Origin: Patescibacteria group bacterium
GTDB lineage: Bacteria; Patescibacteriota; Minisyncoccia; Moranbacterales; UBA2206
NCBI GenBank assembly: GCA_022709735.1
Contig: JAKLIG010000004.1
Span: forward strand, 240 to 64,239
Direction: 5' to 3'
Length of the DNA: 64,000 nt
How positions within the stretch are numbered: the stretch's first letter is position 1; each line of letters opens with the position of its first letter. Positions 4,155 to 61,383 of this stretch are shown piece after piece. Made by a program: the position numbers and the translations under genes. Below the pieces are notes generated by a model. The model was given only the letters and a program-made list of their open reading frames with translations. It ran no database searches and was not told where the DNA came from.

Positions 4155-4425
4155 CTTGTGTTTAATTTTTTCTTTTATTCTAATTTTTTCTTTTGAAATT
4201 AAGAATAACCAAAAACTAAGGCAAAAAATTATCCCTGTCCTAGGATTTTGTCTTTAGTCTTTTTTGACATAATTTAATCAGCTAAAAATTAAATTATTCC
4301 AAACTTTTAGCTACTCATATTTTAGCATAAATTTGAGAAAAAATCTTTCTAGTTGTGGATAAGTTTGAAGACAAAAAAACCTACTCTTTTTAAGCAGGTT
4401 ATTTTAGCAAATTTCTGTAGTTTTA

Positions 4426-6300
4426 TTATCCTAAAACCGCCTTAATTCTTCTCACTCCCGCGCTGGATGATTCTTCTTTGGTTATTTTAAATTTTCCAAT
4501 TTCGGAAGTATTTTTCACATGCGGACCACCGCAAAGTTCAATGCTGAAATCGCCGATTTTATATACTTTCACTATCTCGCCATATTTTGCCGGATCAAAA
4601 GAAATCTTGGCGATTTTCAGGGCTTCGTCTTTTTTCATTTCAATCATTTCGACTGGAATATTTTCTTGAATCTTTTGATTGACCAAATCTTCTATCTTTT
4701 TAATTTGTTCGGGCGTCAGTTTCTCGGGATAATTGAAATCAAATCGCAATCTTTCCGCATTAATGTTGCTACCTTTTTGATAAATCTCTTGACCTAATAT
4801 TTCTCTGATCGCTGCCAAAAGCAAATGCGTCGCCGTGTGATATTTCACAGAAATTTCTCCCGCATCCGCAAGTCCTCCCTTAAACATTCCGGCAGAGGCA
4901 GTTCTCGAGAGTTCTTGATGCTGCTTAAAATCTCTTTCGATAAAATCTTTTTCTAATTTTTTTCCTAAAGAATCGCTGGTTGACTTGCTTAATCCTACGC
5001 CCTTAAATAATTCTAAAAAAAACATGTCATGAGGATATCCATGCGTAGATTCAAGATTAAAAGCAGTTGCTGTGATTGGAGTACCTTCTGCTAATATTTT
5101 TTTATTCATAAATTCGTCAACTTTATCGCTTGAAATTCCTTTTTCCATCATAGATGCTAACAGAAATAATTTATATCTCTCTACTTCTTTATTTTTTAAT
5201 TTTAAAACCTTATTATCTGATAATAATTCATTAAATTTATCTTCTTCCTTTTCTAAAACACCTAAAATATTTTCTTTTAAAATTTCCGGATAAATATCTT
5301 CATAAATTTCTTGTACTACCTTTGCAATTTCATTTATAAAATTTTCTTTAATTCCAATCAGATGACCTTGCCGAATTGCCCGGCGAATTAGTCGGCGCAA
5401 AACATAACCGCGTTGAACATTGGAAGGAGTTATGCCGTCAGCAATAATAAATACGCTGGCTATTATATGATCAGCAATAATTCTAAATTCTTTTTTATTG
5501 TCTTCATATTTTTTTCCGGAAAGTTCTTCAATTTTCTGAATTATCGGCCAGAAAAGTTCTGTTTTATAATTATCATCCAGTCCATTTATCGCCACCAAGA
5601 CTCGCACCAATCCCATCCCAGTATCCACATTCTTTTGCTCAAGTTTTTCATAAGTTCCATCTTTCTTTTTGCCATATTCCATAAAAACATCGTTCCAGAT
5701 TTCTACCCAAAGATCATTGTCATCATTGAAAGATTCAGGAACATTTTCCGGATCTCCAACCCAATAAAAAATTTCGCTGTCTGGTCCGCATGGTCCGGTT
5801 TCTCCCGCTGGTCCCCACCAATTATTTTTTTTGGGAAGTTTTGCAATTCTTTTTTCCGAAACCCCGAGACTTTTCCAAATTTCATAAGCCTCGCTGTCGA
5901 AAGGCGCGTCTTTATCGCCGGCAAAAACGGAAACAGCAATTCTATTTTTATCTAGTCCCAACCATTCCGGCGAAGTCAAAAATTCATAGCTCCACTCAAT
6001 CGCTTCTTTTTTGAAATAATCACCCAGCGACCAATTGCCCAGCATTTCAAAAAAAGTATGATGCGTTGCATCGCCCACTTCATCAATGTCTCCTGTTCGA
6101 ATACATTTTTGGCAATTGGCCAATCTTTTTCCTTGCGGATGTTTTTCGCCTGAAAGATATGGCACCAAAGGATGCATCCCAGCAGTCGTAAAAAGCACCG
6201 TCGGATCATTTTCCGGAATCAAAGAAGCCGAAGGGATAATCGCGTGCCCATGTTTTTCAAAAAATTCCAAGTATTTTTGACGAAGTTCGCTAGCAGTCAT
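4426..6300 (-). CDS. alaS: Alanyl-tRNA synthetase, short form (catalytic + tRNA-recognition + editing domains; the C-terminal C-Ala domain appears absent)
   Basis: N-terminus MTASELRQKYLEFFEKHGHAIIPSASLIPENDPTVLFTTAGM; editing-domain motifs HTATHLL and CGGPHV; 624 aa versus ~870 aa in typical bacteria. Confidence 0.9.
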   Translation of the reverse strand: MTASELRQKYLEFFEKHGHAIIPSASLIPENDPTVLFTTAGMHPLVPYLSGEKHPQGKRLANCQKCIRTGDIDEVGDATHHTFFEMLGNWSLGDYFKKEAIEWSYEFLTSPEWLGLDKNRIAVSVFAGDKDAPFDSEAYEIWKSLGVSEKRIAKLPKKNNWWGPAGETGPCGPDSEIFYWVGDPENVPESFNDDNDLWVEIWNDVFMEYGKKKDGTYEKLEQKNVDTGMGLVRVLVAINGLDDNYKTELFWPIIQKIEELSGKKYEDNKKEFRIIADHIIASVFIIADGITPSNVQRGYVLRRLIRRAIRQGHLIGIKENFINEIAKVVQEIYEDIYPEILKENILGVLEKEEDKFNELLSDNKVLKLKNKEVERYKLFLLASMMEKGISSDKVDEFMNKKILAEGTPITATAFNLESTHGYPHDMFFLELFKGVGLSKSTSDSLGKKLEKDFIERDFKQHQELSRTASAGMFKGGLADAGEISVKYHTATHLLLAAIREILGQEIYQKGSNINAERLRFDFNYPEKLTPEQIKKIEDLVNQKIQENIPVEMIEMKKDEALKIAKISFDPAKYGEIVKVYKIGDFSIELCGGPHVKNTSEIGKFKITKEESSSAGVRRIKAVLG

Positions 6301-6878: not shown

Positions 6879-7994
6879 TTATTTTATTACTCCGCCACCC
6901 AACACTTCTTGTTTTTTATTATAAAACACTATCGACTGCCCCGGCGTCACCGCCCGTTGAGACTTCTCAAAAACAATCCTGTATTCTTCTTTATTCTTGC
7001 TTCTTAATTCTTTCTTCTTGCTTATTGTAGCATAAGAAAGCGGATTTCGGTATCTTGCCCGCACCAAAAGCTTAGTCGGCATTTTCGGCTCATTGTCAAT
7101 CCAATTGACTTTTTCCAAGGTTGCGCTTTTGGAGAATAAGGCTGAATCTTTTTTGGTATTCGTGACGACAAGCTTATTTTTTGCAAAATCTTTATTCGAA
7201 ACATAATACGGTCCAGTCCCGCCAATTTTTATCCCTTTTCTTTGGCCGATCGTATAAAGTGGAAGTCCGAAGTGCCGTCCGATAATTTTATTTTTAAAAT
7301 CGAATATATTTCCTGCTTTGAGTCTTAAGTTTTTTTTCAAAAAATCTTCTACCGACGTATTTCCCAAAAAACAAATATCCTGCGATTCGGCTTTGTCAAA
7401 ATTTGGAAGATCAAATTTTTTTGCCAGTTTCCGCACTTCTTCTTTTTTATATTCTCCCAATGGAAAAATAATTCTCGCCAATTGATTTTGCTTCAATCTG
7501 TACAAAAAATAACTCTGATCTTTGTTTTTATCCTCTGCTTCAAATAAACGATAAGAAAAATTTTCATTGATATTTTTTTTATTTTCTCCCTTCTTGCTTC
7601 TTTCTTCTTGCTTCTCTATGCGAGCGTAATGACCAGTGGAAACATAATCCGCCTTAATTTTATCCGCTTCTTGAAATAATATTTTGAACTTCAAATTCTC
7701 ATTGCAAAAAACACACGGGTTGGGAGTACGGCCGGAAGCGTATTCTTTCAAAAAATATCCAACTACTTCTTTTTTGAATTTTTTCCGTACATCAACCGCC
7801 CTAAGCTCAATATTCAAAATCTTAGCAACTTTTTTTGCATCTTCTAGCGATTTATTATTTTCTCCATCCGTCTTCCAGAGCCTTAAAAATATTCCAAAAA
7901 CATCAAAACCCTGCTTTTTCAGCAGGGCTGCTGACACAGAGGAATCTACTCCGCCGGACATACCTATCAATATTTTTTTTCTTTTTTTTATCAT
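6879..7994 (-). CDS. mnmA: tRNA-specific 2-thiouridylase MnmA
   Basis: PP-loop ILIGMSGGVDSS; start moved to the internal Met (MIKKRKKILIG), since the upstream extension in the track overlaps the intergenic region. Confidence 0.85.
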   Translation of the reverse strand: MIKKRKKILIGMSGGVDSSVSAALLKKQGFDVFGIFLRLWKTDGENNKSLEDAKKVAKILNIELRAVDVRKKFKKEVVGYFLKEYASGRTPNPCVFCNENLKFKILFQEADKIKADYVSTGHYARIEKQEERSKKGENKKNINENFSYRLFEAEDKNKDQSYFLYRLKQNQLARIIFPLGEYKKEEVRKLAKKFDLPNFDKAESQDICFLGNTSVEDFLKKNLRLKAGNIFDFKNKIIGRHFGLPLYTIGQRKGIKIGGTGPYYVSNKDFAKNKLVVTNTKKDSALFSKSATLEKVNWIDNEPKMPTKLLVRARYRNPLSYATISKKKELRSKNKEEYRIVFEKSQRAVTPGQSIVFYNKKQEVLGGGVIK

Positions 7995-7995
7995 C

Positions 7996-8145
7996 CTATT
8001 TTTGCAATCTCTTTGCAATATCGAAAGCCTCCGAATTTTTTGCATTTTCTGTTATCTTTTTTCCTTCTGCGATCGTAAACCAAGAGAGTAAAAAACTTAA
8101 TACAATTACAACTAAAAAAGCTACATGACTGGGAACTTTTTGATT
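7996..8145 (-). CDS. Possible small membrane protein (49 aa, MSFNQKVPSHVAFLVVIVLSFLLSWFTIAEGKK...); below the ORF-track size cutoff
   Basis: Hand translation of the minus strand; single hydrophobic helix; lies between mnmA and the downstream ATPase gene. Confidence 0.3.
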   Translation of the reverse strand, partial: NQKVPSHVAFLVVIVLSFLLSWFTIAEGKKITENAKNSEAFDIAKRLQK

Positions 8146-17523: not shown

Positions 17524-17577
17524 AACATTCTCACATTCCCTGCCTGCCGGCAGGCAGGTGCAGAATATCAGAATGTT
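17524..17577. repeat. Palindromic repeat element E1: aacattctca / perfect 20-nt palindrome CCTGCCTGCCGGCAGGCAGG (17539..17558) / tcagaatgtt
   Basis: Inverted termini plus central palindrome; core shared with E2 (34984..35003) and degenerate copies at 38836..38848, 54935..54950 and 62454..62475. Confidence 0.8.
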
Positions 17578-22479: not shown

Positions 22480-23592
22480 TTAGTGCTGGGCAAGTTGACC
22501 GCAAGCGCCCTGAATATCAGTTCCAAGGCTTTTTCTAATAGTGCAATTAATCTTATTTTGAAGAAGATAATTTCTAAATTTAATCGCTTGCTCCGAGCTT
22601 GAAGAAATAAATTTATTTGTTTTCGTTATTTTTTGGTTATTGCTTCTTGTTTCTTGATTATTGCCTACCGGATTATATTTTATCAAATTCACATGCAATA
22701 GATGTTGTTTTCTAAAAGATTTAATATATTTTATCAAATCTCGCATATCTTTTTCGCTATCATTAATTTTGGAAAATAAAATATATTCCAAAAAAACTTT
22801 TCGATTGGATTTTTCAAAATATTTTTCCAGCTCATTTTTTAATTTTTCCAAATTTAAATTTTTATTGGCTGGCATAAATTTTTCTCTTTTTTTATCATCA
22901 GCGAAATGCAAAGAAATTGCCAAATTTATTTGTGGAAAATCTCTGGTTAATTTTTCCATTCCACCAGGAATCCCGACGGTAGAAACTGAAATAGAGCGCG
23001 AACCAAAATTCATTCCTTTTGGGTCAGTTAATATTTTGAGGCTTTCCCTAACTTCTTCCCAATTCAAAAACGGTTCTCCCATTCCCATGTAAACTATATT
23101 AGAAATTTTCAAACCCCTCCCAACCTCCCCTTTCAAAGGGGAGGTGGTTTTGGCATTAGCCAAAACCGGTGGGGTTTGTGTTTTCCAAAACAAAACCTGA
23201 TCTGAAATTTCTTCGGCCGTTAAATTTCTCTTAAATCCCCCGCTACCTGTTGCGCAAAATTCGCAGTTCATCGGACAGCCGACTTGGCATGAAATGCAAG
23301 CCGACCAAACGCCGGGTTTTGGCGAAATTAAAACCGTTTCAATTTTATTTCCGTCTTCCAATTTCAAAAGCGCTTTTATTGAATCCTTATTCTCTGAAAC
23401 TAAAACTTTTTCCGCTTCAAAAGACAGGATTTTTATTTCCTTATTCAATATTTCCCGCAAATCTTTCGGCAAATTAGAAATTTCCAAAAAACTCGAAACA
23501 CCGTCTTGATAGACAGCTTTTATAATCTGCCCCAACCGAAACTTCGGTTGGTTATTTTCTTTTAAAATTTGTTCGAGTAATTCAATATTCAT
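22480..23592 (-). CDS. rlmN: 23S rRNA/tRNA m2A methyltransferase RlmN (radical SAM)
   Basis: CISCQVGCPMNCEFCATG radical-SAM motif, MGMGEP, C-terminal ACGQL. Confidence 0.85.
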   Translation of the reverse strand: MNIELLEQILKENNQPKFRLGQIIKAVYQDGVSSFLEISNLPKDLREILNKEIKILSFEAEKVLVSENKDSIKALLKLEDGNKIETVLISPKPGVWSACISCQVGCPMNCEFCATGSGGFKRNLTAEEISDQVLFWKTQTPPVLANAKTTSPLKGEVGRGLKISNIVYMGMGEPFLNWEEVRESLKILTDPKGMNFGSRSISVSTVGIPGGMEKLTRDFPQINLAISLHFADDKKREKFMPANKNLNLEKLKNELEKYFEKSNRKVFLEYILFSKINDSEKDMRDLIKYIKSFRKQHLLHVNLIKYNPVGNNQETRSNNQKITKTNKFISSSSEQAIKFRNYLLQNKINCTIRKSLGTDIQGACGQLAQH

Positions 23593-32300: not shown

Positions 32301-32741
32301 TTATTCTATCATCATTCCTCTCCTCGTATGATGCTTCCTCGCCACTCTGATTCTGGCTGATTCTTTTTCAATCGCTGCCGCCACTTTGGCGAATTCACTT
32401 TCATCCATAGTAATTTTTTGCTTTTTGAGCTCTTCTGCTTTTTCTCGGGCTTCTTCCGCTTTTTTTAGATCAATCTCTTCCACTCTTTCCGCCGTGTCCG
32501 CCAAAACAATCAGCTCATTGTCATGAAATTCAATAAACCCGCCGGAGATAAAAAGAAAAATTTCTTTTCCATTTTTCTTAAACATCGCTTCTCCTGCTTC
32601 AAGGCTGGCGATATAACTTCGGTGATCCGGAAGAATTGTAATTTGCCCATCCGTTGTCGGCAAAGTTATTTGATCAACAATATCTTCAAGGGTAGTTTGT
32701 TCAGGAGTGATTATTTTTAGTTTAATATTTGAATTAGACAT
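32301..32741 (-). CDS. atpC: F-type ATP synthase epsilon subunit
   Basis: LKIITPEQT...ITILPDH...; position after atpD. Confidence 0.8.
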   Translation of the reverse strand: MSNSNIKLKIITPEQTTLEDIVDQITLPTTDGQITILPDHRSYIASLEAGEAMFKKNGKEIFLFISGGFIEFHDNELIVLADTAERVEEIDLKKAEEAREKAEELKKQKITMDESEFAKVAAAIEKESARIRVARKHHTRRGMMIE

Positions 32742-32873: not shown

Positions 32874-34301
<1,428 letters not shown>

Positions 34302-34307
34302 TTAATT

Positions 34308-34353
34308 ATTGAATATTGATTAATAAAAAATAATTTAATAATCAATATTCAAT
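34308..34353. promoter_or_regulatory. Perfect 15-bp inverted repeat (attgaatattgatta ... taatcaatattcaat, 16-nt spacer) in the divergent atpD / small-ORF control region, abutting a minus-strand ttgact -35 box (34354..34359)
   Basis: Read directly from the sequence. Confidence 0.5.
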
Positions 34354-34365
34354 AGTCAATTTTTG

Positions 34366-34434
34366 CTTTGTTTTAGCCAAATATCCGCTGATTAGGATTT
34401 GGCATTTGACTTTTTCACAATTTTATGATATCAT
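34366..34434 (+). promoter_or_regulatory. Conserved upstream element (34366..34400, shared with 37781..37815) plus promoter for small ORF P1: -35 ttgact (34406..34411), 17-nt spacer, extended -10 TGaTATCAT (34426..34434); RBS aaaaggagagg precedes the ATG
   Basis: Identical 35-nt block ctttgttttagccaaatatccgctgattaggattt at both loci; both are followed by ttgactttt. Confidence 0.6.
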
Positions 34435-34492
34435 CCAAAGTCAACTTAACAACTCAATACAAATAAACGTCTGATGAAAAGGAGAGGCTAGA

Positions 34493-34843
34493 ATGAAAAA
34501 AAGTTATTATGTATTAACTATTATGAAGGTTCCACGTAAGGATGTTGTAGGAAGCGTAGCAAATCGTAATTTTCGGTTCGATATAATGGGAATTGATAAA
34601 TCTTCCGGAAAAATTGAACGATTTTCATTCAGTTCAGAAAGAATTGTAGCATTACAATGCAATAATTGTTCTTCCGAAGATTTCATTAGAATTTCCATTT
34701 TAAACTTCCTGCAAGACTTCGGGCTTCAAATCGTTTCCTCCGAAACGATCAAGGAAATTTGGATGGATAGGTATGAAATTTTTGTATATAAACATTTTCT
34801 CATATCTAATTCTCCTGTTTCCCTGAAAGACATTACAGAGTAG
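34493..34843 (+). CDS. Small hypothetical protein P1 (116 aa), antisense insert between atpG and atpD
   Basis: Strong promoter and SD; no recognisable domain. Confidence 0.55.
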   Translation: MKKSYYVLTIMKVPRKDVVGSVANRNFRFDIMGIDKSSGKIERFSFSSERIVALQCNNCSSEDFIRISILNFLQDFGLQIVSSETIKEIWMDRYEIFVYKHFLISNSPVSLKDITE

Positions 34844-34874
34844 ACGCTAAAAAGTTGTGCCAGCAAGTAGCTGG

Positions 34875-34917
34875 AAAAAACCACTGATTCCGAACCTTGG
34901 ATGACGTGGCTTTTTTG
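34875..34917 (+). terminator. Terminator of P1: aaaaaaccactgattccgaaccttggatgacgtggcttttttg; homologous to the P2 terminator
   Basis: Imperfect hairpin followed by a T-tract; motif ccaCTGATTcc. Confidence 0.5.
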
Positions 34918-34948
34918 TTTTCTTTTTTATAAAAGAACTCCTATTTTC

Positions 34949-35033
34949 GTCATCCTGAACGCAGTGAACCTTTTTTGAGATTCCCTGCCTGCCGGCAGGC
35001 AGGTTCGCTCTGCTCAGAATGACGATTATTATT
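34949..35033. repeat. Palindromic repeat element E2: gtcatcctgaacgcag...ctgctcagaatgac with inner gaacc/ggttc stem and the perfect CCTGCCTGCCGGCAGGCAGG core (34984..35003)
   Basis: Termini shared with E4; core shared with E1; lies between convergent P1 and atpG, so it could serve as the atpG terminator. Confidence 0.8.
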
Positions 35034-35069
35034 TTGATTTTCAATTTTCTAAAAGCTATAAGCTAAAAG

Positions 35070-36029
35070 CTAATTTTCTAACGCCGCTCTTCCTGCTGAA
35101 ATTTCCGCGATCTCCTGCGTAATCTTCATCTGCCTAATTTGATTATACGCCAGCGTGAGATCCATCGCCATTTCTTCCGACGCTTCCGTCGCATTTTTCA
35201 TTGCAATCATCTGGGCTGATTCTTTGGACGCATTGGATTCCAGAATCGCATGATAAACCTGCATTTCAATGAGACGCGGAATAATATCCTTCAAAACTTC
35301 TATCGGGCTTGGTTCTATCTTATATTCCACTATCGGTTCAGAAAGTCCGTATTCTTTGGCCAAAACATCCATCTCGGCAATTTGCTTTTCCAAATCAATT
35401 TTTGATAGTGGCAAAATTTGGCGAACTTTTGTCTGTTGATTTATCGTTGAGACATAATCCGTATAAAAAATAACAACTTTGTCATATTTTTTCGCCAGAT
35501 ATTCTTGAATGACAATTTTTCCAATCGCCCTGACATCATCAATTTTTGGCAGATATGCCAGATCATTAAACGAGGCAATAATTTCATTTCCAGCTTTTCG
35601 AATGGCAACTTCTCCTTTTTTTCCGATGGTTATAAAATCAATTGCTAAATCTTTATTAGAAATTTTGGATTCTAGTTTTTTCGTTCCGATTCGATTTATT
35701 TTTAATTTTTCTGGATTATCCAATTCTTCTTTTATCTTTCTGGCTATTTGCGAATTGAATGATCCGCAAAGTCCGCGATTAGAAGTTATCACAATTGCCA
35801 AAATTCTTTTCACCTCACGAACTTCCAAAAGCCCTTCCTGATTTTTTTCAAACGAGCGGGCTAGATTAGTCAGAATGCTCCAAGCGCTGTGAGCATACGG
35901 CCGAATTGCCAAAACAGACGCAATTGCGCGCCGCATTTTTGCCGCACTCACCATTTCCATCGCCCGCGTAATTTTCCCGGTGTTTTTGATGGACTTTATT
36001 CGCCTTCTAATTTCTTTGCCACTTGCCAT
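35070..36029 (-). CDS. atpG: F-type ATP synthase gamma subunit
   Basis: N-terminus MASGKEIRRRIKSIKNTGKITRAMEMVSAAKMRRA; C-terminus ...AEISAGRAALEN. Confidence 0.9.
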   Translation of the reverse strand: MASGKEIRRRIKSIKNTGKITRAMEMVSAAKMRRAIASVLAIRPYAHSAWSILTNLARSFEKNQEGLLEVREVKRILAIVITSNRGLCGSFNSQIARKIKEELDNPEKLKINRIGTKKLESKISNKDLAIDFITIGKKGEVAIRKAGNEIIASFNDLAYLPKIDDVRAIGKIVIQEYLAKKYDKVVIFYTDYVSTINQQTKVRQILPLSKIDLEKQIAEMDVLAKEYGLSEPIVEYKIEPSPIEVLKDIIPRLIEMQVYHAILESNASKESAQMIAMKNATEASEEMAMDLTLAYNQIRQMKITQEIAEISAGRAALEN

Positions 36030-36155: not shown

Positions 36156-37664
36156 TTAGTTGTTATTCTCATATACTTCTTTGAATTCCTTAATAGCTTT
36201 CTCTAATTTAGCAACGACATCATCATTTAATTCTTTTTTATCAGCAATTAATTTCAAAACATCTTTCGCGCTGGAATACATATATTTCTGAAAATCTTCT
36301 TCCCATTTTTTTATTTTTTCCACTGCGGTGTCATCTAAAAATCCATTTGTGAGAGCATAAAGAATTGCCACCTGATTTTCCATTGCCATCGGTTCGTATT
36401 GACCTTGTTTCAAAACTTCAACGGTTCGTCTTCCTCTTTCAATTTGTTTCCTTGTATTTTCATCCAGGTCTGATCCGAATTGCGCAAAAGCTTCGAGTTC
36501 TCTAAATTGCGCCAAATCTAATCGAAGTTTTCCGGCTACTTTTTTCATCGCTTTTGTTTGCGCTGATGAACCAACACGAGAAACGCTGAGGCCAACATTC
36601 AGCGCCGGACGAACTCCTTTATAAAACAAATCTGATTCCAAATAAATTTGTCCGTCAGTTATGGAAATAACATTAGTTGGGATGTAGGCCGAAACATCGC
36701 CGGCTTGCGTTTCAATAATTGGAAGAGCCGTGAGTGATCCTCCGCCAAAATCTTTGTTCATTTTCGCACTTCGCTCCAAAAGTCTGGAGTGAAGATAAAA
36801 AATATCTCCCGGATAAGCTTCGCGTCCTGGTGGGCGTCTTAGAATCAAAGAAATTTGGCGATAAGCCCAAGCGTGCTTGGAAAGATCATCATAAATTACG
36901 AGAACATCTTTGCCTTTGTCCATAAAATATTCTCCGAGCGCGCAACCGGAATATGGAGCGATAAAAGAAAATGCCGCTGGATCAGATGCGCCCGCCAAAA
37001 CCACTGTCGTATATTCCATCGCACCTTTCTTTTCGAGTTCCGCGACAATTCTTGCAATTTTAGATTCTTTTTGGCCAATCGCCACATAAATGCAAATCAT
37101 GTCCTGTCCCTTTTGATTGATAATCGCATCCACCGCAATGGCAGTTTTCCCAGTTTGGCGATCGCCGATAATCAATTCTCTTTGCCCTCGACCGATTGGA
37201 ATCATTGAATCAATCGCTTTTATTCCTGTTTGCACTGGTTGATTGACCGATTCGCGAGAAATTACGCCTGAAGCAATTTTTTCAATCGGATAATTTTTTT
37301 CTGTTTTAATGTCCCCCTTGCCGTCTATTGGTTCTCCCAGCGGATTAACCACTCTTCCAATCATAGATTCTCCGACTGGAATGGAAAGAATTTTTCCGGT
37401 TGATTTTACCGTGTCTCCTTCTTTGATGTTTTCATAGTTTCCCAAAATCATGGCTCCGATTTGCCCTTCTTCCAAGTTTAGTGCCACGCCGTAAATGCCA
37501 CCAGAAAATTCAAGCATTTCCGATGCCATGCAATCCGAAAGCCCGGAAATTTTTGCTACGCCGTCTCCAATTTCAATAACCGTTCCAACTTTTTCGGTTT
37601 GCGTCTTGGCTTCAAAATTCTCAATTTGCTTTTTTAACTGGTCGATAATGTGGTTTTTGTTCAT
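36156..37664 (-). CDS. atpA: F-type ATP synthase alpha subunit
   Basis: Walker A GDRQTGKT; length 502 aa. Confidence 0.95.
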
Positions 37665-37780
37665 ATAAATTTAATTTTAAATTATAAATTTGAAATTTGA
37701 AATGAATTTTAAATGTTTTAATTCTTAATTTAGTAATTTAGCCTTGATTTAAAATTTCAAATTTAGCCTTTAAAATTTTC

Positions 37781-37849
37781 CTTTGTTTTAGCCAAATATC
37801 CGCTGATTAGGATTTAGGGGTTGACTTTTGAGGTGGTTTGTAATACACT
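37781..37849 (+). promoter_or_regulatory. Second copy of the conserved upstream element (37781..37815) plus promoter for small ORF P2: -35 ttgact (37821..37826), -10 candidate tacact (37844..37849); RBS taaggagg precedes the ATG
   Basis: Shares the 35-nt block and -35 context with 34366..34414. Confidence 0.55.
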
Positions 37850-37904
37850 TCAATGATTTAATTGAAAACAATTAACTAATAAAATTTTAATAAGGAGGTT
37901 ACTG

Positions 37905-38189
37905 ATGAGCGAATTAGTAGGAAAATTAATTGCTGTTCTTTTTTTAAAACCGGATTATGAGGGCAACTTAACAAAAGAAGCGATTCAGGGAAAAGTTGTA
38001 AAGGTGGAAAATAATTTGCTTTTCCTTACGGATGTTTTTAAATTAACAACCAACATGGGTATTAGGGCGGAAAGATGCTACGACCAAGTCATTAGCACTT
38101 GCTCATTATTATTCGTAAAGATGGAAATAATTCCAGATGATAGATTTTTTCGTTATCCTTACTTCGAAGATTTTCATTTACAAAGATAA
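37905..38189 (+). CDS. Small hypothetical protein P2 (94 aa), antisense insert between atpH and atpA
   Basis: Strong SD aaggagg 7 nt before the ATG; no recognisable domain; no clear similarity to P1. Confidence 0.55.
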   Translation: MSELVGKLIAVLFLKPDYEGNLTKEAIQGKVVKVENNLLFLTDVFKLTTNMGIRAERCYDQVISTCSLLFVKMEIIPDDRFFRYPYFEDFHLQR

Positions 38190-38214
38190 AAGCCCATTCC
38201 ATCTAAAACCGCTG

Positions 38215-38250
38215 ATTCCATATTATTTGGATGACGCGGTTTTCTTTTTC
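38215..38250 (+). terminator. Terminator of P2: aaaaccgctgattccatattatttggatgacgcggttttctttttc; homologous to the P1 terminator
   Basis: ccgc/gcgg stem followed by a T-tract; motif ccGCTGATTcc. Confidence 0.5.
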
Positions 38251-38276
38251 TCAATTTTTTAAAAGAACAAATTTTT

Positions 38277-38402
38277 TGTAGGGGTTTGATTCATCAAACC
38301 CGCCTCGTGTAGGGAATGCGTATACGCATTCCTGAATTTTCATTTCTTCGGAACGCATATATGCGTTCCCTACATTTGGGCTTGATAAATCAAGCCCCTA
38401 CA
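38277..38402. repeat. Nested palindrome cluster: four perfect 20-nt palindromes (gggtttgattcatcaaaccc 38282..38301; ggaatgcgtatacgcattcc 38313..38332; ggaacgcatatatgcgttcc 38350..38369; gggcttgataaatcaagccc 38378..38397) framed by tgtagggg...cccctaca, directly after the atpH stop
   Basis: Each palindrome verified by reverse-complementing it. Confidence 0.8.
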
Positions 38403-38819
38403 TTATTTCACCAGCATTTTCTTCAAATTATTCAACTGGTTTATCACACTTCCATCCAACACTTCATCCCCAACTTTTATAATAATTCCGCCTTTGATGT
38501 TCTCATCGATTTTATTTTCAACAACGACTTCCTTGGCTTTGTATTTACTTTTCAAAAAATCTGTTATTTTCTTAATCATACCGCTTTCCAGCTTTTCTCG
38601 CGAGACGACCTGCGCCGTTACTATGCCATTCTCCCGATCATATATTTCTTCAAATTTCGCTATGATATTTTTCTTGAATTTCAGCTGATTATTTTTCGCC
38701 AAAACTTTCACGAAATTTTCCATCACATTATCAATCTCCTTTTGAGATTTTTTTTCAGTCATTTCATATAAAGTTTTCGCGTATTGCGTGGCTGTTATTT
38801 TCATTCGTTTATTTGTCAT
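38403..38819 (-). CDS. atpH: F-type ATP synthase delta (OSCP) subunit
   Basis: Position between atpF and atpA; start placed at MTNKRMKITATQYAKTLYEM, because the track's longer ORF runs into repeat E3. Confidence 0.75.
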   Translation of the reverse strand: MTNKRMKITATQYAKTLYEMTEKKSQKEIDNVMENFVKVLAKNNQLKFKKNIIAKFEEIYDRENGIVTAQVVSREKLESGMIKKITDFLKSKYKAKEVVVENKIDENIKGGIIIKVGDEVLDGSVINQLNNLKKMLVK

Positions 38820-38898: not shown

Positions 38899-39384
38899 TT
38901 ATTTAATTGCCCGATTTATTAAATCTTTATCCTTTTCGCTATCCATTTTCTCCGCGATTATTTTTTCCGTCGCCGATACAACCAGTCCGGCAATTTCTGA
39001 TTTTACCTCTGTTAGCATTTTTACTTTTTCTTGCTCAATGCTTTTCTTGGCTTCTTCTATCATTTTCACATTTTGTTCTTTCGCTTCCACAATTATATTT
39101 TCCGCATTTTTCTTAGCTTCGCCTTCTGATTTTTTGATTATTTCCTGCGCTTCTTTTCTGGCTTTCACCAAAACTTCTTTTTCCTTCTCCGTTATTTCCT
39201 CCAATTTTTTAGAAGCTTCTTCGCTGTCTTTGAGACCCTTTTCAATTTTTTTCGTCCGATCATTTAGCATCTTGAGAACTGGCTTATAAGCAAACTTCCA
39301 TAAAATCAAAAGCAGAATCAAAAAGTTCACAATTTGAGCAATTAATAATCTGACATCGATACCTAATTTTGATAATAATTCCAT
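38899..39384 (-). CDS. atpF: F-type ATP synthase subunit b
   Basis: N-terminal TM helix IAQIVNFLILLLILWKF, then long charged coiled coil. Confidence 0.85.
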   Translation of the reverse strand: MELLSKLGIDVRLLIAQIVNFLILLLILWKFAYKPVLKMLNDRTKKIEKGLKDSEEASKKLEEITEKEKEVLVKARKEAQEIIKKSEGEAKKNAENIIVEAKEQNVKMIEEAKKSIEQEKVKMLTEVKSEIAGLVVSATEKIIAEKMDSEKDKDLINRAIK

Positions 39385-39450: not shown

Positions 39451-39732
<282 letters not shown>

Positions 39733-39765: not shown

Positions 39766-40518
39766 TTAATGCTCGGCTTCCATTGTGCCGATTTTCAAAA
39801 ATACAATCGTAAGCATTGAAAAAACCAGCGCCTGGACAAAACCGACAAACATTTCCAAAAACAAAAACGGGAGAGGAACAATATACGGCACGAGATTTAG
39901 CATCACGATGAGCAAAACTTCACCGGCAAAAATATTTCCAAACAATCGGAATGCATAGGAAATAATTCGGGACACTTCTCCGACAATTTCCAAAATTCCG
40001 ACAAATGTTCCGATGAAATATGGTTTATGAAATGGGCTGATAAAAAACTTTTTGGCATATTTTACCACTCCAATTGTCGCAATCCCCATAAACTGCACGG
40101 AAAAAACCGAAACTAGCGCGAGAGCTATCGTGACGTTGAGATCAGCTGAAGAACTTCGAAGAAACGGAATGAGAATTTCTTTTCCATGGAGATTTTCCCG
40201 AATTCCGATTGTTCCAAGTCCTGGCATAAGCTCCACCCAGTTGGAAAGAATCACAAAAATGAAAATTGTCATCACGATTGGAAAAAATTTTTCCGTTTGT
40301 TTTCGGTTTTGCGTAATGCTATCAGTTAAATTTAAAAAAGCTTCCATAACATATTCAACTATGTTTTGAAAGCCTCGCGGAACTTTTTTAAGATTATTTT
40401 TTAATATAAGTGATGCGATGAGAACTATAAGGGTGATGAAAACAGCTACAACCAGCGTGTTGGTTACGGGGAAACTTCCTATGTGGAATAATGGTTCGGC
40501 TGCAATTGAAATCTCCAT
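39766..40518 (-). CDS. atpB: F-type ATP synthase subunit a
   Basis: Polytopic membrane protein; ...RLFGNIFAGEVLL motif. Confidence 0.85.
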   Translation of the reverse strand: MEISIAAEPLFHIGSFPVTNTLVVAVFITLIVLIASLILKNNLKKVPRGFQNIVEYVMEAFLNLTDSITQNRKQTEKFFPIVMTIFIFVILSNWVELMPGLGTIGIRENLHGKEILIPFLRSSSADLNVTIALALVSVFSVQFMGIATIGVVKYAKKFFISPFHKPYFIGTFVGILEIVGEVSRIISYAFRLFGNIFAGEVLLIVMLNLVPYIVPLPFLFLEMFVGFVQALVFSMLTIVFLKIGTMEAEH

Positions 40519-40757
40519 TATTTTTTCTCTGAATTATTTATTATTTCAACTGATTTTTTGTACACCATATACGATGAAACTGCGATTGAAATTATTATTC
40601 CTAAAAGCAACATCCAAGGCGAGGTGCCCATTTTTTTATCCAAAAATCTTCCAATGAGCGCCAGCACTACCAGCGGAACAGCGATTGAGTAGCCAAGAGA
40701 CCAAGCCAAAGATAATGCTGACCAGGAATTTTCCTGACTTTTATTTTTGTCTTCCAT
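40518..40757 (-). CDS. AtpI/AtpZ-like small membrane protein; stop overlaps the atpB start (TAATG)
   Basis: Two TM helices; position at the head of the atp operon. Confidence 0.6.
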   Translation of the reverse strand: MEDKNKSQENSWSALSLAWSLGYSIAVPLVVLALIGRFLDKKMGTSPWMLLLGIIISIAVSSYMVYKKSVEIINNSEKK

Positions 40758-42390: not shown

Positions 42391-42444
42391 GTCATCCTGA
42401 ACGAAGTGAAGGATCTCGAGATTCTTCGCTATGCTCAGAATGAC
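42391..42444. repeat. Palindromic repeat element E4: gtcatcctgaacgaagtgaaggatctcgag / attcttcgctatgctcagaatgac, a near-perfect 54-nt hairpin between metG stop and tatD start
   Basis: The two halves are reverse complements with a few mismatches. Confidence 0.8.
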
Positions 42445-55298: not shown

Positions 55299-56588
55299 TT
55301 ATTTCGTAGTTCGTAAAACTATTTTTCTTCTTATTAAACTGCCTTTTGGCAAAATTTTATCAAACTCAAAATAATATAATTTTTCATGTCCACCGTGCGC
55401 TTCTTGGACTTCTTCTTTTTTGTGGTTTAATATTTTCACAATTTTTACCGGAATATTTTTCTCTGGTGTTATAGCTTCAATTTTGTCATTTTTGAAAACA
55501 GCGTTATGGATTTTCAAAATATTTAATTTATTTTGGACAGATTTAAAATCTGTCCCTACATTATTATTTAAAACTTCCCCGACAAATTCCCAGCTTCCTT
55601 TCTTCATTTTACCGCCAAAATTATGCGGAGGCTCGTCCCCCAAAAGAAACCCTGTCCAATATCCGCGGTTGGTAAGATTATCCAATTCTTTTTTTTGCTC
55701 TAAGATTATTTTTCTAATTTCCCCTTTTGATTTTTTCTGTGCTATCGCATCAATTACTTTTCGATAAGCGCGCGTTGCAACCGCTACATAATAGGCGCTC
55801 TTCGCCCGCCCTTCAATCTTGAAGCTGGTAACGCCCGCTTTGATTAGCTCATCAATATACTCAATCAAATTCATATCAAAACTATTGAAAAAATATGTCC
55901 CGTGCCGATCTTCTTCGATATCCATCTCGTATTTATTCAGCTTCTCTTTTATTCTTACTTCTTTATTCTTACTTCCTACTTCTTCATATTCCCACCGGCA
56001 AGGTTGGGTGCAATCGCCAAGATTAGCACTACGATTGTTCATCCATTTCGAAAGAATGCACCGCCCCGAATAGCTCATGCACATTGCGCCGTGGATAAAA
56101 TATTCAAGCTCGATATCTTTGACTTTTTTCCTGATTTCTTTTATTTCAGAAAGACTAACTTCCCGCGCTAAAATTATTCTTTTGACTCCCGTGTCTCGCC
56201 AAAATTTCACCGCTTCAAAATTAGTGGCATTGGCTTGCGTCGAAAGATGAATGTCGGTTTTTGGCAGATATTTTTTCACTAAATTTATTATCCCCGGATC
56301 ACTTACAATTACTGCATTGACACCAACTTTGCTTAAGAATTTTAAATGCTTTTTAACTTTTTCCAAATGTTGATTATGCGCATAAATATTGAGCGTCACA
56401 TAAATTTTTTTGCCAAGATTATGAGCATATTCAACCGCCTCTAGAATATCTTTTTCGCTAAATTCATTAATTCGCACCCGAAGCGAAAAATCCGGCACAC
56501 CCAAATACACCGCGCCCGCGCCATATTGAAAAGCGTATTTCATTTTAGAAAAACTCCCTGCTGGTGATAACAATTCTACTTTTTTCAT
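55299..56588 (-). CDS. Peptidase U32 family protein (YegQ/RlhA-like)
   Basis: N-terminus MKKVELLSPAGS...; FIHGAMCMSYSGRC; C-rich LGDCTQPCRW. Confidence 0.8.
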   Translation of the reverse strand: MKKVELLSPAGSFSKMKYAFQYGAGAVYLGVPDFSLRVRINEFSEKDILEAVEYAHNLGKKIYVTLNIYAHNQHLEKVKKHLKFLSKVGVNAVIVSDPGIINLVKKYLPKTDIHLSTQANATNFEAVKFWRDTGVKRIILAREVSLSEIKEIRKKVKDIELEYFIHGAMCMSYSGRCILSKWMNNRSANLGDCTQPCRWEYEEVGSKNKEVRIKEKLNKYEMDIEEDRHGTYFFNSFDMNLIEYIDELIKAGVTSFKIEGRAKSAYYVAVATRAYRKVIDAIAQKKSKGEIRKIILEQKKELDNLTNRGYWTGFLLGDEPPHNFGGKMKKGSWEFVGEVLNNNVGTDFKSVQNKLNILKIHNAVFKNDKIEAITPEKNIPVKIVKILNHKKEEVQEAHGGHEKLYYFEFDKILPKGSLIRRKIVLRTTK

Positions 56589-60644: not shown

Positions 60645-61013
60645 TCAGACGAGCCGGCAGATTTCCCGCCAAAGTTTTTCCAGAACTAATGGCTTCTCCA
60701 GAAAAACATCAAATCCAACATCAATGCATTCGTCCTCATGTTGCGGTATTCCCGAAATGCACACCGTTTTAATCGCCGGACTAATTTCTTTCGCATAGTT
60801 GAACAAATCAATCCCCGTTAATATCGGCATATTGAAATCAGTTATCAAAATATCACAACTCCTTCCGCCGTTATTAAGAAACGAGAGAGCATTTACGGGC
60901 TTACTGAAAGTATGAACATCAGCTCCTTTTCTTCCTGCTAAAAAATTTTTCAAAAGATTAAGGATTTTTTGTTCGTCATCAACCACACAAATTGTCAGAT
61001 TTTGTTTCTTCAT
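60645..61013 (-). CDS. Single-domain response regulator (CheY-like receiver)
   Basis: ICVVDDE...ILITDFNMP...KTVCISG. Confidence 0.75.
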   Translation of the reverse strand: MKKQNLTICVVDDEQKILNLLKNFLAGRKGADVHTFSKPVNALSFLNNGGRSCDILITDFNMPILTGIDLFNYAKEISPAIKTVCISGIPQHEDECIDVGFDVFLEKPLVLEKLWREICRLV

Positions 61014-61041: not shown

Positions 61042-61383
61042 TTAAGCAGTTATAATTTTATTGACTGCCGCTTCTAGTTCTTTGAAATTCAATATTCTCA
61101 AAACATTCTCATTCGTATTAATTTCGTCATTTTTTGATATCAAGATAATTTTGATGTCTGGCTTAATTTCTTTAACCTTTTCAATTAACTTGTAAGCTTT
61201 AATTTTGGTTTTATCTATATCCACAACCAAAAGATCAATTTGTGGTTTATTTTTAATGAAATTCAGAGCTTCTTTGGAATTTAGAAAACAATATACTTCA
61301 AGCCCTAAATCCTCTAAAAAAAGAACGGTTATAGATAACGATAAGCCATCACTGTCCACAACGACAGCTTTTTTCTTTTCCAT
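61042..61383 (-). CDS. Single-domain receiver-like protein
   Basis: AVVVDSD...LLVVDID...IILISKN. Confidence 0.65.
   Translation of the reverse strand: MEKKKAVVVDSDGLSLSITVLFLEDLGLEVYCFLNSKEALNFIKNKPQIDLLVVDIDKTKIKAYKLIEKVKEIKPDIKIILISKNDEINTNENVLRILNFKELEAAVNKIITA

Follow-up and report, generated by a model that had tools for sequence, protein, structure and literature searches.

GTAG-tagged palindromes nested beside atpH in a Moranbacteria genome are probably repetitive extragenic palindromes of the RayT type

Repetitive extragenic palindromes (REPs) of the GTAG-tagged kind are defined by a GTAG tetranucleotide that abuts a short palindrome (PMC8266576, PMC3733652). For GTAG families, a TY loop has been described, and a pair of units carrying their tags on the outside is named a head-to-head (HH) dimer (PMC3733652). 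The transposase RayT binds the folded single strand and needs GTAG for cleavage, and with short perfect REPs it tolerates changes in the stem better than changes in the loop or the tag; strand-specific binding and cleavage have a precedent only in the enzymes of E. coli, S. maltophilia, and Marinomonas (PMC8266576). Work on REPs and RayT has been almost wholly proteobacterial, and there the systems are viewed as lineage-specific and vertically inherited. In this study, a stretch of 64,000 nucleotides (the window), a segment with 36% G+C from a metagenome-assembled genome (MAG) of Candidatus Moranbacteria, a member of the Candidate Phyla Radiation (CPR), was analyzed with a focus on a cluster of palindromes located at positions 38277 to 38402, next to the stop codon of atpH. 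We conclude with good confidence that these palindromes are GTAG-tagged REPs, a class of directional hairpin repeats known as cognate single-stranded DNA substrates of RayT-type (Y1 HUH, IS200-like) transposases.

The cluster comprises four units (U1 to U4; Table 1), each consisting of a TGTAG head and a directly abutting 20-nt hairpin, and the shared (T)GTAG head gives each unit a direction. In U2 and U3, the left and right members of an inner head-to-head dimer, the head is followed by the perfect palindromes GGAATGCGTATACGCATTCC and GGAACGCATATATGCGTTCC, respectively. In U1 and U4, the outer left and outer right members of an outer head-to-head dimer, it is followed by GGGTTTGAT-TC-ATCAAACCC and GGGCTTGAT-TT-ATCAAGCCC, i.e., by 9-bp stems enclosing the loops TC and TT, and these central dinucleotides (tagged strand) are non-complementary. 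An earlier note on this DNA had quoted the sequence of the cluster, which is present exactly at this place and adjoins the atpH stop, and had described it as four perfect 20-nt palindromes framed by an outer inverted repeat containing GTAGGG. The first part of this description applies to U2 and U3, but not to U1 and U4 with their 9-bp stems and 2-nt loops; the frame does exist, but rather than forming just an outer inverted repeat, it reflects that every unit has a (T)GTAG head of its own. With the orientation + + − − and spacers of 6, 17, and 3 nt, the cluster represents two nested head-to-head dimers of two stem types whose GTAG tags point outward, showing neither recurrence nor tandem reiteration. 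The 25-nt arms are complementary at 88% in the outer pair (U1/U4) and at 84% in the inner pair (U2/U3). Two compensatory base-pair exchanges distinguish U2 from U3, and the differences between U1 and U4 are also mostly compensatory. The gap between U4 and the atpH stop codon is 0 nt, as the cluster ends at position 38402 and the codon, TAA on the minus strand, occupies positions 38403 to 38405.

A chance origin of the cluster is excluded by three observations taken together. Perfect 9-bp hairpins are present at 20 positions of the window, compared to 2.6 ± 1.6 (maximum, 6) in 60 dinucleotide-preserving shuffles of it, and four of the 20 fall inside the 126 nt of the cluster. For the 25-mers of the cluster units, zero matches are expected in the shuffles. 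Finally, the minimum free energy fold of the cluster, calculated as RNA for the atpH strand, is a single nested hairpin of −72.2 kcal/mol with a z-score of −10.2; the corresponding z-score for folding as DNA is −8.5. The cluster is, as the earlier note had maintained, more ordered than a simple terminator and capable of forming a large hairpin or cruciform. Rfam contains no family matching the cluster, the only match being a meaningless one to a microRNA below the threshold. CRISPR repeats, integron attC sites, dif sites, group II intron targets, and hairpins of diversity-generating retroelements were set aside on anatomy alone.

The units are widely dispersed, and their pairing, rather than their sequence, is conserved in much of this dispersal. 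A scan of 185,579 species genomes with a U1/U4-type pattern returned at least 120 stretches, which belong to MAGs from more than 25 phyla, the hosts including Aminicenantes, Omnitrophota, Atribacterota, Elusimicrobia, Chloroflexi, Planctomycetes, Ignavibacteria, WOR-3, and Zixibacteria as well as the CPR groups Roizmanbacteria and Collierbacteria, a "Patescibacteria group" MAG, and an Altiarchaeota MAG. Several genomes contributed many matches (Aminicenantes DRHQ01, WVZK01, and WVXO01; Eubacteriales CAYUXD01). Among the 152 genome matches listed, the free pair is a Watson-Crick pair in 140 (C-G, 85; T-A, 55), and the loop is TT, TC, or TA likewise in 140, starting with T, being strand-specific, and agreeing with the TY loop of GTAG families (PMC3733652); the commonest stem in the genome scan, GGGCTTGATTTATCAAGCCC (45 copies), corresponds to that of U4. 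At U1, a 31-mer recurs identically in a viral contig (L071) and in a WOR-3 MAG (L136). The corresponding scan of metagenomes with a U2/U3-type pattern yielded at least 120 stretches; among the matches listed, 162 of 188 units are identical to U3, on contigs ranging from 31 to 56% G+C, and 178 of 188 are fully complementary at the unconstrained positions. In viral contigs, scanned with the pattern GTAGGGGNNNGATNNATCNNNCCC, 67 of 98 matches are complementary at all three free pairs, for which the chance is 1 in 64; the stems are highly diverse (GCGCGAT, TTTGAT, ACGGAT, CACGAT, and others). The tag is specific; in 831 kb of genome loci, GTAG precedes perfect hairpins starting with GG 213 times, compared to 31 times for the next unrelated 4-mer, and the base 5′ of the tag is T in 71% of the units. 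The earlier note had named a search for the 20-mers or the GTAGGG frame as a check and had considered an unusually elaborate terminator the simpler explanation if the sequences were unique to this locus and transcript data showed termination there; in fact, the units recur across more than 25 phyla, in metagenomes, in viral contigs, and at a second place in the window (U5; Table 1), and are therefore not unique to this locus.

The genomic positions of the units were evaluated for 156 classifiable units in the fetched genome loci, 60 others near locus ends being set aside. Intergenic positions account for 79% of them (33 of 156 are intragenic), whereas only 23% of the DNA is intergenic. The intergenic units lie between unidirectional genes in 85 cases, between convergent genes in 26, and between divergent genes in 12, and their orientation relative to the neighboring genes shows no bias (47 same, 38 opposite). 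Dimers are head-to-head in 51, head-to-tail in 33, and tail-to-tail in 10 cases, and many of the dispersed family members are single hairpins tagged on both sides (GTAG-hairpin-CTAC). Two features of the cluster have counterparts elsewhere, namely, the mixture of stems (clusters in L085, L138, L136, L033, and L058) and the AT-rich spacer, which measures 14 to 20 nt in head-to-head heterodimers of the U2/U3 unit type in L216, L257, and L312.

On putative viral contigs from IMG/VR (L058, L033, L024, L017, and others), GTAG hairpins are packed into dense arrays that combine five or six different stems. L058 harbors 12 units in 11 kb, and in L058 and L033 the units are located in short gaps between co-directional genes, with the tag always on the non-coding strand. 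In the viral loci as a whole, 31 units have the opposite and 17 the same orientation as their neighbors, whereas the genomes are unbiased.

A link to RayT emerged when RayT of E. coli K-12 was compared with the open reading frames (ORFs) of the fetched loci and the hits were used as further queries. With the E. coli query, Y1_Tnp proteins were found in L179, L153, and L124, and L096 gave a weaker match; the further queries add L102 and L172. Y1_Tnp genes are present in 6 of the 120 genome blocks and in 14 of the 120 metagenome blocks listed, the latter having been selected solely for their U3-type unit. As a rough estimate, a single-copy gene, with one copy per approximately 3 Mb, falls in well under 1% of random 8-kb blocks, and the occurrence in 14 of 120 blocks therefore indicates that the linkage between units and RayT is real. 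The unit-associated enzymes align with E. coli RayT, and their subfamily comprises 4,248 proteins at an E value of ≤1e-10, many of which carry the JGI name "REP element-mobilizing transposase RayT". In L179 (Endomicrobiales), a gene for a 144-aa RayT is flanked by inverted units with the tags outward, one of which, GTAGGGGTTTGATTTATCAAACCC, is of the U1/U4 type, and in L102 a unit is located directly 5′ of the RayT gene. In an all-against-all clustering of the ORFs in the fetched loci, no protein family was found consistently beside the units.

In addition, units occur within RayT genes. A U3-type unit, the embedded copy being identical to U3, is positioned in frame inside the RayT gene in 10 loci (L218, L238, L240, L258, L264, L269, L272, L281, L293, and L297), a U1-type unit in L096 and L172, and a third type in L302. 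The embedded unit is always found just past the HUH strand (MPNHIHGIVII-VGNAYMRSL...), where it is read as V-G-N-A-Y-M-R-S or a comparable peptide, and the coding strand is the GTAG strand (proteins P0272 to P0391). The peptide VGNAYMRS is exactly conserved in 84 of the 120 best RayT homologues, the flanking loop residues being variable, and the segment is an insertion relative to both E. coli RayT and the RayT of L179. RayT genes with an embedded unit are often accompanied by additional units, either upstream of the gene or at its stop codon. In the literature searched, we found no description of a REP located within a RAYT gene.

In L153, a Sumerlaeota MAG, the RayT homologue is flanked by GTGG-tagged hairpins, GTGGCATGGGCATCTTGCCCATG, at positions 5128 to 5150, 5827 to 5849, and 5856 to 5878. 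The same 8-kb block also carries several GTAG units, some of them tagged on both sides, which shows that several REP types coexist in one genome.

A fifth unit, U5, was identified by scanning the window for GTAG followed by a hairpin. Its stem differs from those of U1 to U4, and stems resembling it (GGACAG...CTGTCC) were found in other genomes; a scan of viral contigs with the U5-type pattern gave no matches. U5 lies in frame within a peptidase U32 gene, in the U32_C domain, at approximately amino acids 343 to 352, where it is read as N-V-G-T-D-F-K-S-V-Q. The closest U32 homologue (P0122; 66% identity) is shorter by 9 residues exactly at U5. This lack of the segment, in a variable loop of U32, provides independent support for insertion of a REP. 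Neither the peptidase U32 nor the RayT protein P0274 has a sequence match among solved structures. In another U32 homologue, P0139, the loop that holds U5 accommodates an insertion of approximately 150 residues with the repeat-derived peptides SVIPAEAEEPL, SVIPTEAEEPL, and VIPAKAGIY. To judge from these sequences, the loop may repeatedly tolerate in-frame insertions of palindromic repeats.

Several observations weigh against the assignment of the cluster to the GTAG-tagged REPs. The number of copies looks low, with five GTAG units at two loci in the approximately 72 kb of the host genome covered, which falls well short of a high-copy repeat, and a tblastn search with five RayT queries detected no RayT gene in the window or in 8.4 kb of adjoining sequence. 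In approximately 320 fetched loci, no match to the cluster extends beyond one unit (31 nt or less), and neither doublet recurs together with its spacer. The near-identity of units across very distant phyla is atypical of classical REPs and falls outside the standard model. Moreover, there are no terminator-like sites on the atpH (minus) strand, where the hairpins are not followed by a U-tract and the standard rule for intrinsic (Rho-independent) terminators does not predict termination; the sole terminator-like match in the cluster is on the plus strand, at U2.

The cluster is situated in the atp operon, whose genes are listed in Table 1 together with the other features of the locus. A contig from JGI sample 3300009776 (L001) matches the window at 100% over 21.5 kb, including the REP cluster; this rules out an assembly artefact, with the proviso that the two assemblies may not be independent. 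The true product of atpH likely has 133 aa and starts with MKITATQ, as suggested by homologues that also have 133 aa. A distance of 738 bp separates atpH from atpA, and the orphan ORF94 is located between them on the plus strand. ORF94 is followed by a terminator-like hairpin at approximately positions 38205 to 38250 and a T-rich run. Neither ORF94 nor ORF116, a second orphan ORF in the atpG-atpD spacer, belongs to a Pfam family, and they show no mutual similarity; in a search of 5.8 billion proteins, the sole match to ORF94 was ORF94 itself.

Table 1. Positions of the REP units, the atp genes, and neighboring features in the 64-kb window
Feature	Positions	Strand	Sequence or remark
REP unit U1	38277-38301	plus	TGTAGGGGTTTGATTCATCAAACCC
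REP unit U2	38308-38332	plus	TGTAGGGAATGCGTATACGCATTCC
Spacer of the inner dimer	38333-38349		17 nt, AT-rich; tgaattttcatttcttc
REP unit U3	38350-38374	minus	TGTAGGGAACGCATATATGCGTTCC
REP unit U4	38378-38402	minus	TGTAGGGGCTTGATTTATCAAGCCC
Solo REP unit U5	55535-55561	minus	TGTAGGGACAGATTTTAAATCTGTCC; stem differs from U1-U4
Lineage-specific insertion	37783-38405		623 nt; between atpH stop and ancestral spacer; blastn vs L197
Ancestral atpH-atpA spacer	37665-37782		AT-rich, imperfect palindrome with 51-nt arms; directly upstream of atpA
ORF94	37905-38189	plus	94-aa orphan ORF, convergent with atpH; ribosome-binding site AAGGAGG 6 nt 5′ of ATG
atpI-like	40518-40757	minus	
atpB	39766-40518	minus	
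atpE	39451-39732	minus	
atpF	38899-39384	minus	
atpH (F1 delta/OSCP)	38403-38804	minus	PF00213; positions of the product, longest ORF to 38867
atpA (F1 alpha)	36156-37664	minus	
atpG	35070-36029	minus	
atpD	32874-34286	minus	
atpC	32301-32741	minus	

The local history of the atpH-atpA spacer was reconstructed by comparison with relatives. The best match to AtpH is 73% identical, and AtpH of the four relatives examined is 61 to 69% identical. None of these four has a GTAG unit in the atpH-atpA spacer, which measures 11 bp in L194, 48 bp in L196, and 116 bp in L197 and contains an unrelated 126-aa ORF in L195. Relative to L197, the window features an insertion of 623 nt, which consists, in order, of a promoter-like TTGACT/TACACT pair, ORF94, the terminator-like hairpin with its T-run, and the REP cluster, the latter forming the atpH-proximal end. 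The cluster thus resides between the convergent atpH and ORF94, a typical position for REPs. The remainder of the atpH-atpA region corresponds to the ancestral spacer, which is 94% identical over 103 nt (window 37671 to 37772) to positions 4403 to 4505 of L197, i.e., to its whole spacer. The genes flanking this spacer share only 68 to 78% DNA identity between the window and L197. From the sequences, the AT-rich palindrome before atpA could be either a conserved leader or regulatory element of atpA or itself a mobile element.

A 40-nt motif, CTTTGTTTTAGCCAAATATCCGCTGATTAGGATTT, followed by a TTGACT promoter-like box, occurs in the window at positions 37776 to 37815 and 34361 to 34400 and in L197 at positions 7876 to 7924, the two window copies being 97.5% identical to each other. 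In each case, it precedes an unrelated small reverse ORF in an atp spacer (ORF94, ORF116, and ORF136 of L197). The motif could represent a promoter or operator module common to these ORFs or, alternatively, the end of an insertion cassette. More generally, extra DNA in Moranbacteria relatives is found at two hot spots, the atpH-atpA and atpG-atpD spacers (window 34287 to 35069; L195 4406 to 4786 and 7430 to 8135; L197 7090 to 8039; L194 4426 to 4921), which contain orphan reverse ORFs of 116, 136, and 72 aa, the 126-aa ORF, and, in L195, an ORF resembling a GIY-YIG endonuclease that is fused to the end of atpG.

The window also contains palindromes unrelated to the GTAG units. A second intergenic family, with the sequence GTCATCCTGAACGAAGTGAAGGATCTC ... 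GAGATTCTTCGC..CTCAGAATGAC, is represented at positions 42391 to 42444, 34947 to 35025, and 17527 to 17575 and in L197 at approximately 7985 to 8045; two of the copies enclose the identical inner palindrome CCTGCCTGCCGGCAGGCAGG, and one is located 45 nt past the atpG stop, in a place analogous to that of the REP cluster past atpH. At positions 23123 to 23167, inside a minus-strand ORF (22480 to 23592), two adjacent perfect hairpins, ACCTCCCCTTTCAAAGGGGAGGT and GGTTTTGGCATTAGCCAAAACC, are present without a GTAG tag.

Alternatively, the cluster might have arrived with, or as the end of, a 623-bp ORF94 cassette, i.e., a module of promoter and ORF that inserts in reverse orientation into atp spacers, in which case the REPs would be the border of the cassette or part of donor DNA, e.g., from a phage. 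This scenario is in accordance with the fact that the atpH-proximal end of the insertion coincides exactly with the cluster, with the reverse orphan ORF116 in the atpG-atpD spacer and the other palindromic repeat beside the atpG stop, with the 40-nt upstream motif and TTGACT box common to ORF94, ORF116, and ORF136 of L197, and with the dense arrays of GTAG units on viral contigs. However, no GTAG unit is present at the other end of the insertion, the cassettes of ORF116 and of ORF136 in L197 contain the shared promoter module but no such units, the units occur in hundreds of contexts in which no such cassette is present, and ORF94 has no homologue anywhere. We regard this scenario as unlikely. 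A locally evolved RNA element, i.e., a bidirectional terminator or mRNA stabilizer between atpIBEFH and atpA that was selected for its function, would suit the position directly past the atpH stop codon and between convergent genes, the very stable fold (−72.2 kcal/mol), and the plus-strand terminator-like match at U2; in addition, REPs of E. coli are reported to affect transcription and mRNA stability (PMC8266576). Yet the same spacer is free of the cluster in all four relatives, identical units are found in unrelated loci, phyla, genes, and viral contigs, the genomic units display no orientation bias toward neighboring genes, and the hairpins lack a U-tract on the atpH strand, which together make such an origin highly improbable. 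The proposal of the earlier note that the cluster is a dedicated intra-operon attenuator is contradicted specifically by the spacers of the relatives, which have no such element, and by the location of the cluster in a lineage-specific 623-bp insertion.

The earlier note had also considered an array of operator sites for a dimeric (helix-turn-helix [HTH]) regulator, here of the atp genes, an idea to which the four dyad-symmetric 20-mers and their symmetric layout lend themselves. In such an array, the sequence of the sites would be kept, whereas the changes between the copies are compensatory and maintain intrastrand pairing instead; moreover, the units differ from dyad operators in having a direction, which they owe to the asymmetric GTAG head and the T-first loop. 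The cluster is located past a stop codon, at a distance of at least about 110 nt from promoter-like sites, and the units are dispersed over unrelated contexts in more than 25 phyla, including coding and viral ones. Finally, no transcriptional regulator near the cluster was found among the top 25 of the 83 Pfam families (49 window ORFs), a set that included ParB HTH domains and two receiver-domain ORFs (60648 to 61013 and 61045 to 61383). An operator array is therefore contradicted by these data, and we assign it a negligible probability.

In the preferred explanation, REPs mobilized by a RayT-type transposase, RayT would have introduced the units by cleaving and joining folded single-stranded DNA, as the rest of the family suggests. 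The tolerance of RayT toward stem changes is in line with this family, in which little besides GTAGG...CC and a T-first loop is common to the members. In the simplest history, the inner dimer (U2, 17 nt, U3) would have entered the spacer of the outer dimer (U1...U4); removal of the inner dimer leaves a spacer of 9 nt, which is within the range of 2 to 9 nt common elsewhere. We further consider, tentatively and at somewhat less than an even chance, that the cluster is the footprint of a RayT-REP system that carries a cognate REP in frame inside its transposase gene and spreads horizontally, in contrast to the vertically inherited REPIN-RAYT pairs of proteobacteria, reaching even the small genomes of the CPR. 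A transposase gene carrying its own substrate would move together with it, which could account for the presence of near-identical 24-nt hairpins in hosts as different as CPR bacteria, Aminicenantes, Omnitrophota, Chloroflexi, and an Altiarchaeota MAG as well as in phage-like contigs.

If transcribed, the cluster would be expected to provide the atpIBEFH message with a long stable hairpin at its 3′ end. Such a hairpin might block 3′ exonucleases, impede read-through, and insulate atpH from transcription of ORF94. An effect as a terminator or on the 3′-end stability of the atpH mRNA is thus possible as a side effect, but a specific RNA-level role of the cluster, for which the predicted fold could be invoked, is far less certain than its nature as a REP. 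In E. coli, a REP located a few nucleotides from the stop codon can reportedly lower translation of the upstream gene, a finding ascribed to work of Liang, Rudd and Deutscher from 2015. By this analogy, the hairpin 0 nt past the stop codon might lower AtpH translation.

These results change the view of the locus, as the atp operon of this Moranbacteria genome appears to have been invaded by small repeats and an orphan ORF rather than to be under the control of a palindromic operator array. Three aspects go beyond the literature searched, namely, a CPR host, near-identical units across phyla and viral contigs, and an in-frame REP in RayT genes. If our interpretation is correct, the locus and its relatives offer tractable cases for studying the spread of REPs between lineages, the recognition by RayT of divergent stems that share only GTAGG...CC, and the autoregulation or mobilization of a transposase gene by an embedded substrate. 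For annotation, it is relevant that the units give rise to spurious short ORFs and recurrent peptides (VGNAYMRS, GLINQTPT) in metagenomic protein sets.

Compared with known systems, the units resemble the subterminal hairpins of IS200/IS605 elements and their miniature derivatives in being single-stranded DNA hairpins of the kind recognized by Y1 HUH enzymes, with a short 5′ guide or tag. In contrast to these elements, there is no transposase or TnpB gene between the arms of the cluster, and the units have only 24 to 26 nt and lack left-end/right-end asymmetry. The likeness to GTAG-tagged REPs (Di Nocera et al. 2013, PMC3733652) is more extensive, as it comprises the GTAG abutting a perfect stem of 9 to 10 bp with a loop of 0 to 2 nt (TY), the mostly intergenic location downstream of genes in unidirectional or convergent settings, the prevalence of head-to-head dimers with common heterodimers, the occasional in-frame intragenic copies (U5), and, as seen for the family in other genomes, the presence of inverted units on both sides of a Y1/RayT gene. 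The same unit structure is found in the "group 3" short perfect REPs of the Stenotrophomonas, Pseudomonas, and Marinomonas REPtrons (Corneloup et al. 2021, PMC8266576). The differences concern the host, since Di Nocera et al. list no CPR member (PMC3733652), and in the literature searched we found neither a paper dealing with REPs or RAYTs of CPR members nor one containing the unit sequences or the peptides they encode. They also concern the dispersal, for classical families are mostly specific to a lineage, whereas the same 24-mers recur here nearly unchanged in more than 25 phyla and on viral contigs. Furthermore, unrelated stems in one cluster share only GTAGG...CC, a cognate unit is located in frame inside many RayT genes, and the copy number in the host genome looks low.

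With REPINs (REP doublets forming hairpins; Bertels and Rainey 2011, PMC3116915), the cluster shares the arrangement of two inverted REPs separated by a short spacer and forming one long hairpin, which both the inner and the outer pair fit. It differs in that one doublet is nested within another and that neither doublet recurs with its spacer in the fetched loci, and in that, outside this locus, the family is often represented by single hairpins with a tag at either side. Bacterial interspersed mosaic elements (BIMEs) of enterobacteria are likewise clusters of inverted REPs with intergenic, operon-internal locations, but the + + − − order of the cluster is not alternating, linker motifs and tandem reiteration are absent, and the stems are perfect instead of bulged. 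In form, the cluster is REPIN-like and not a BIME.

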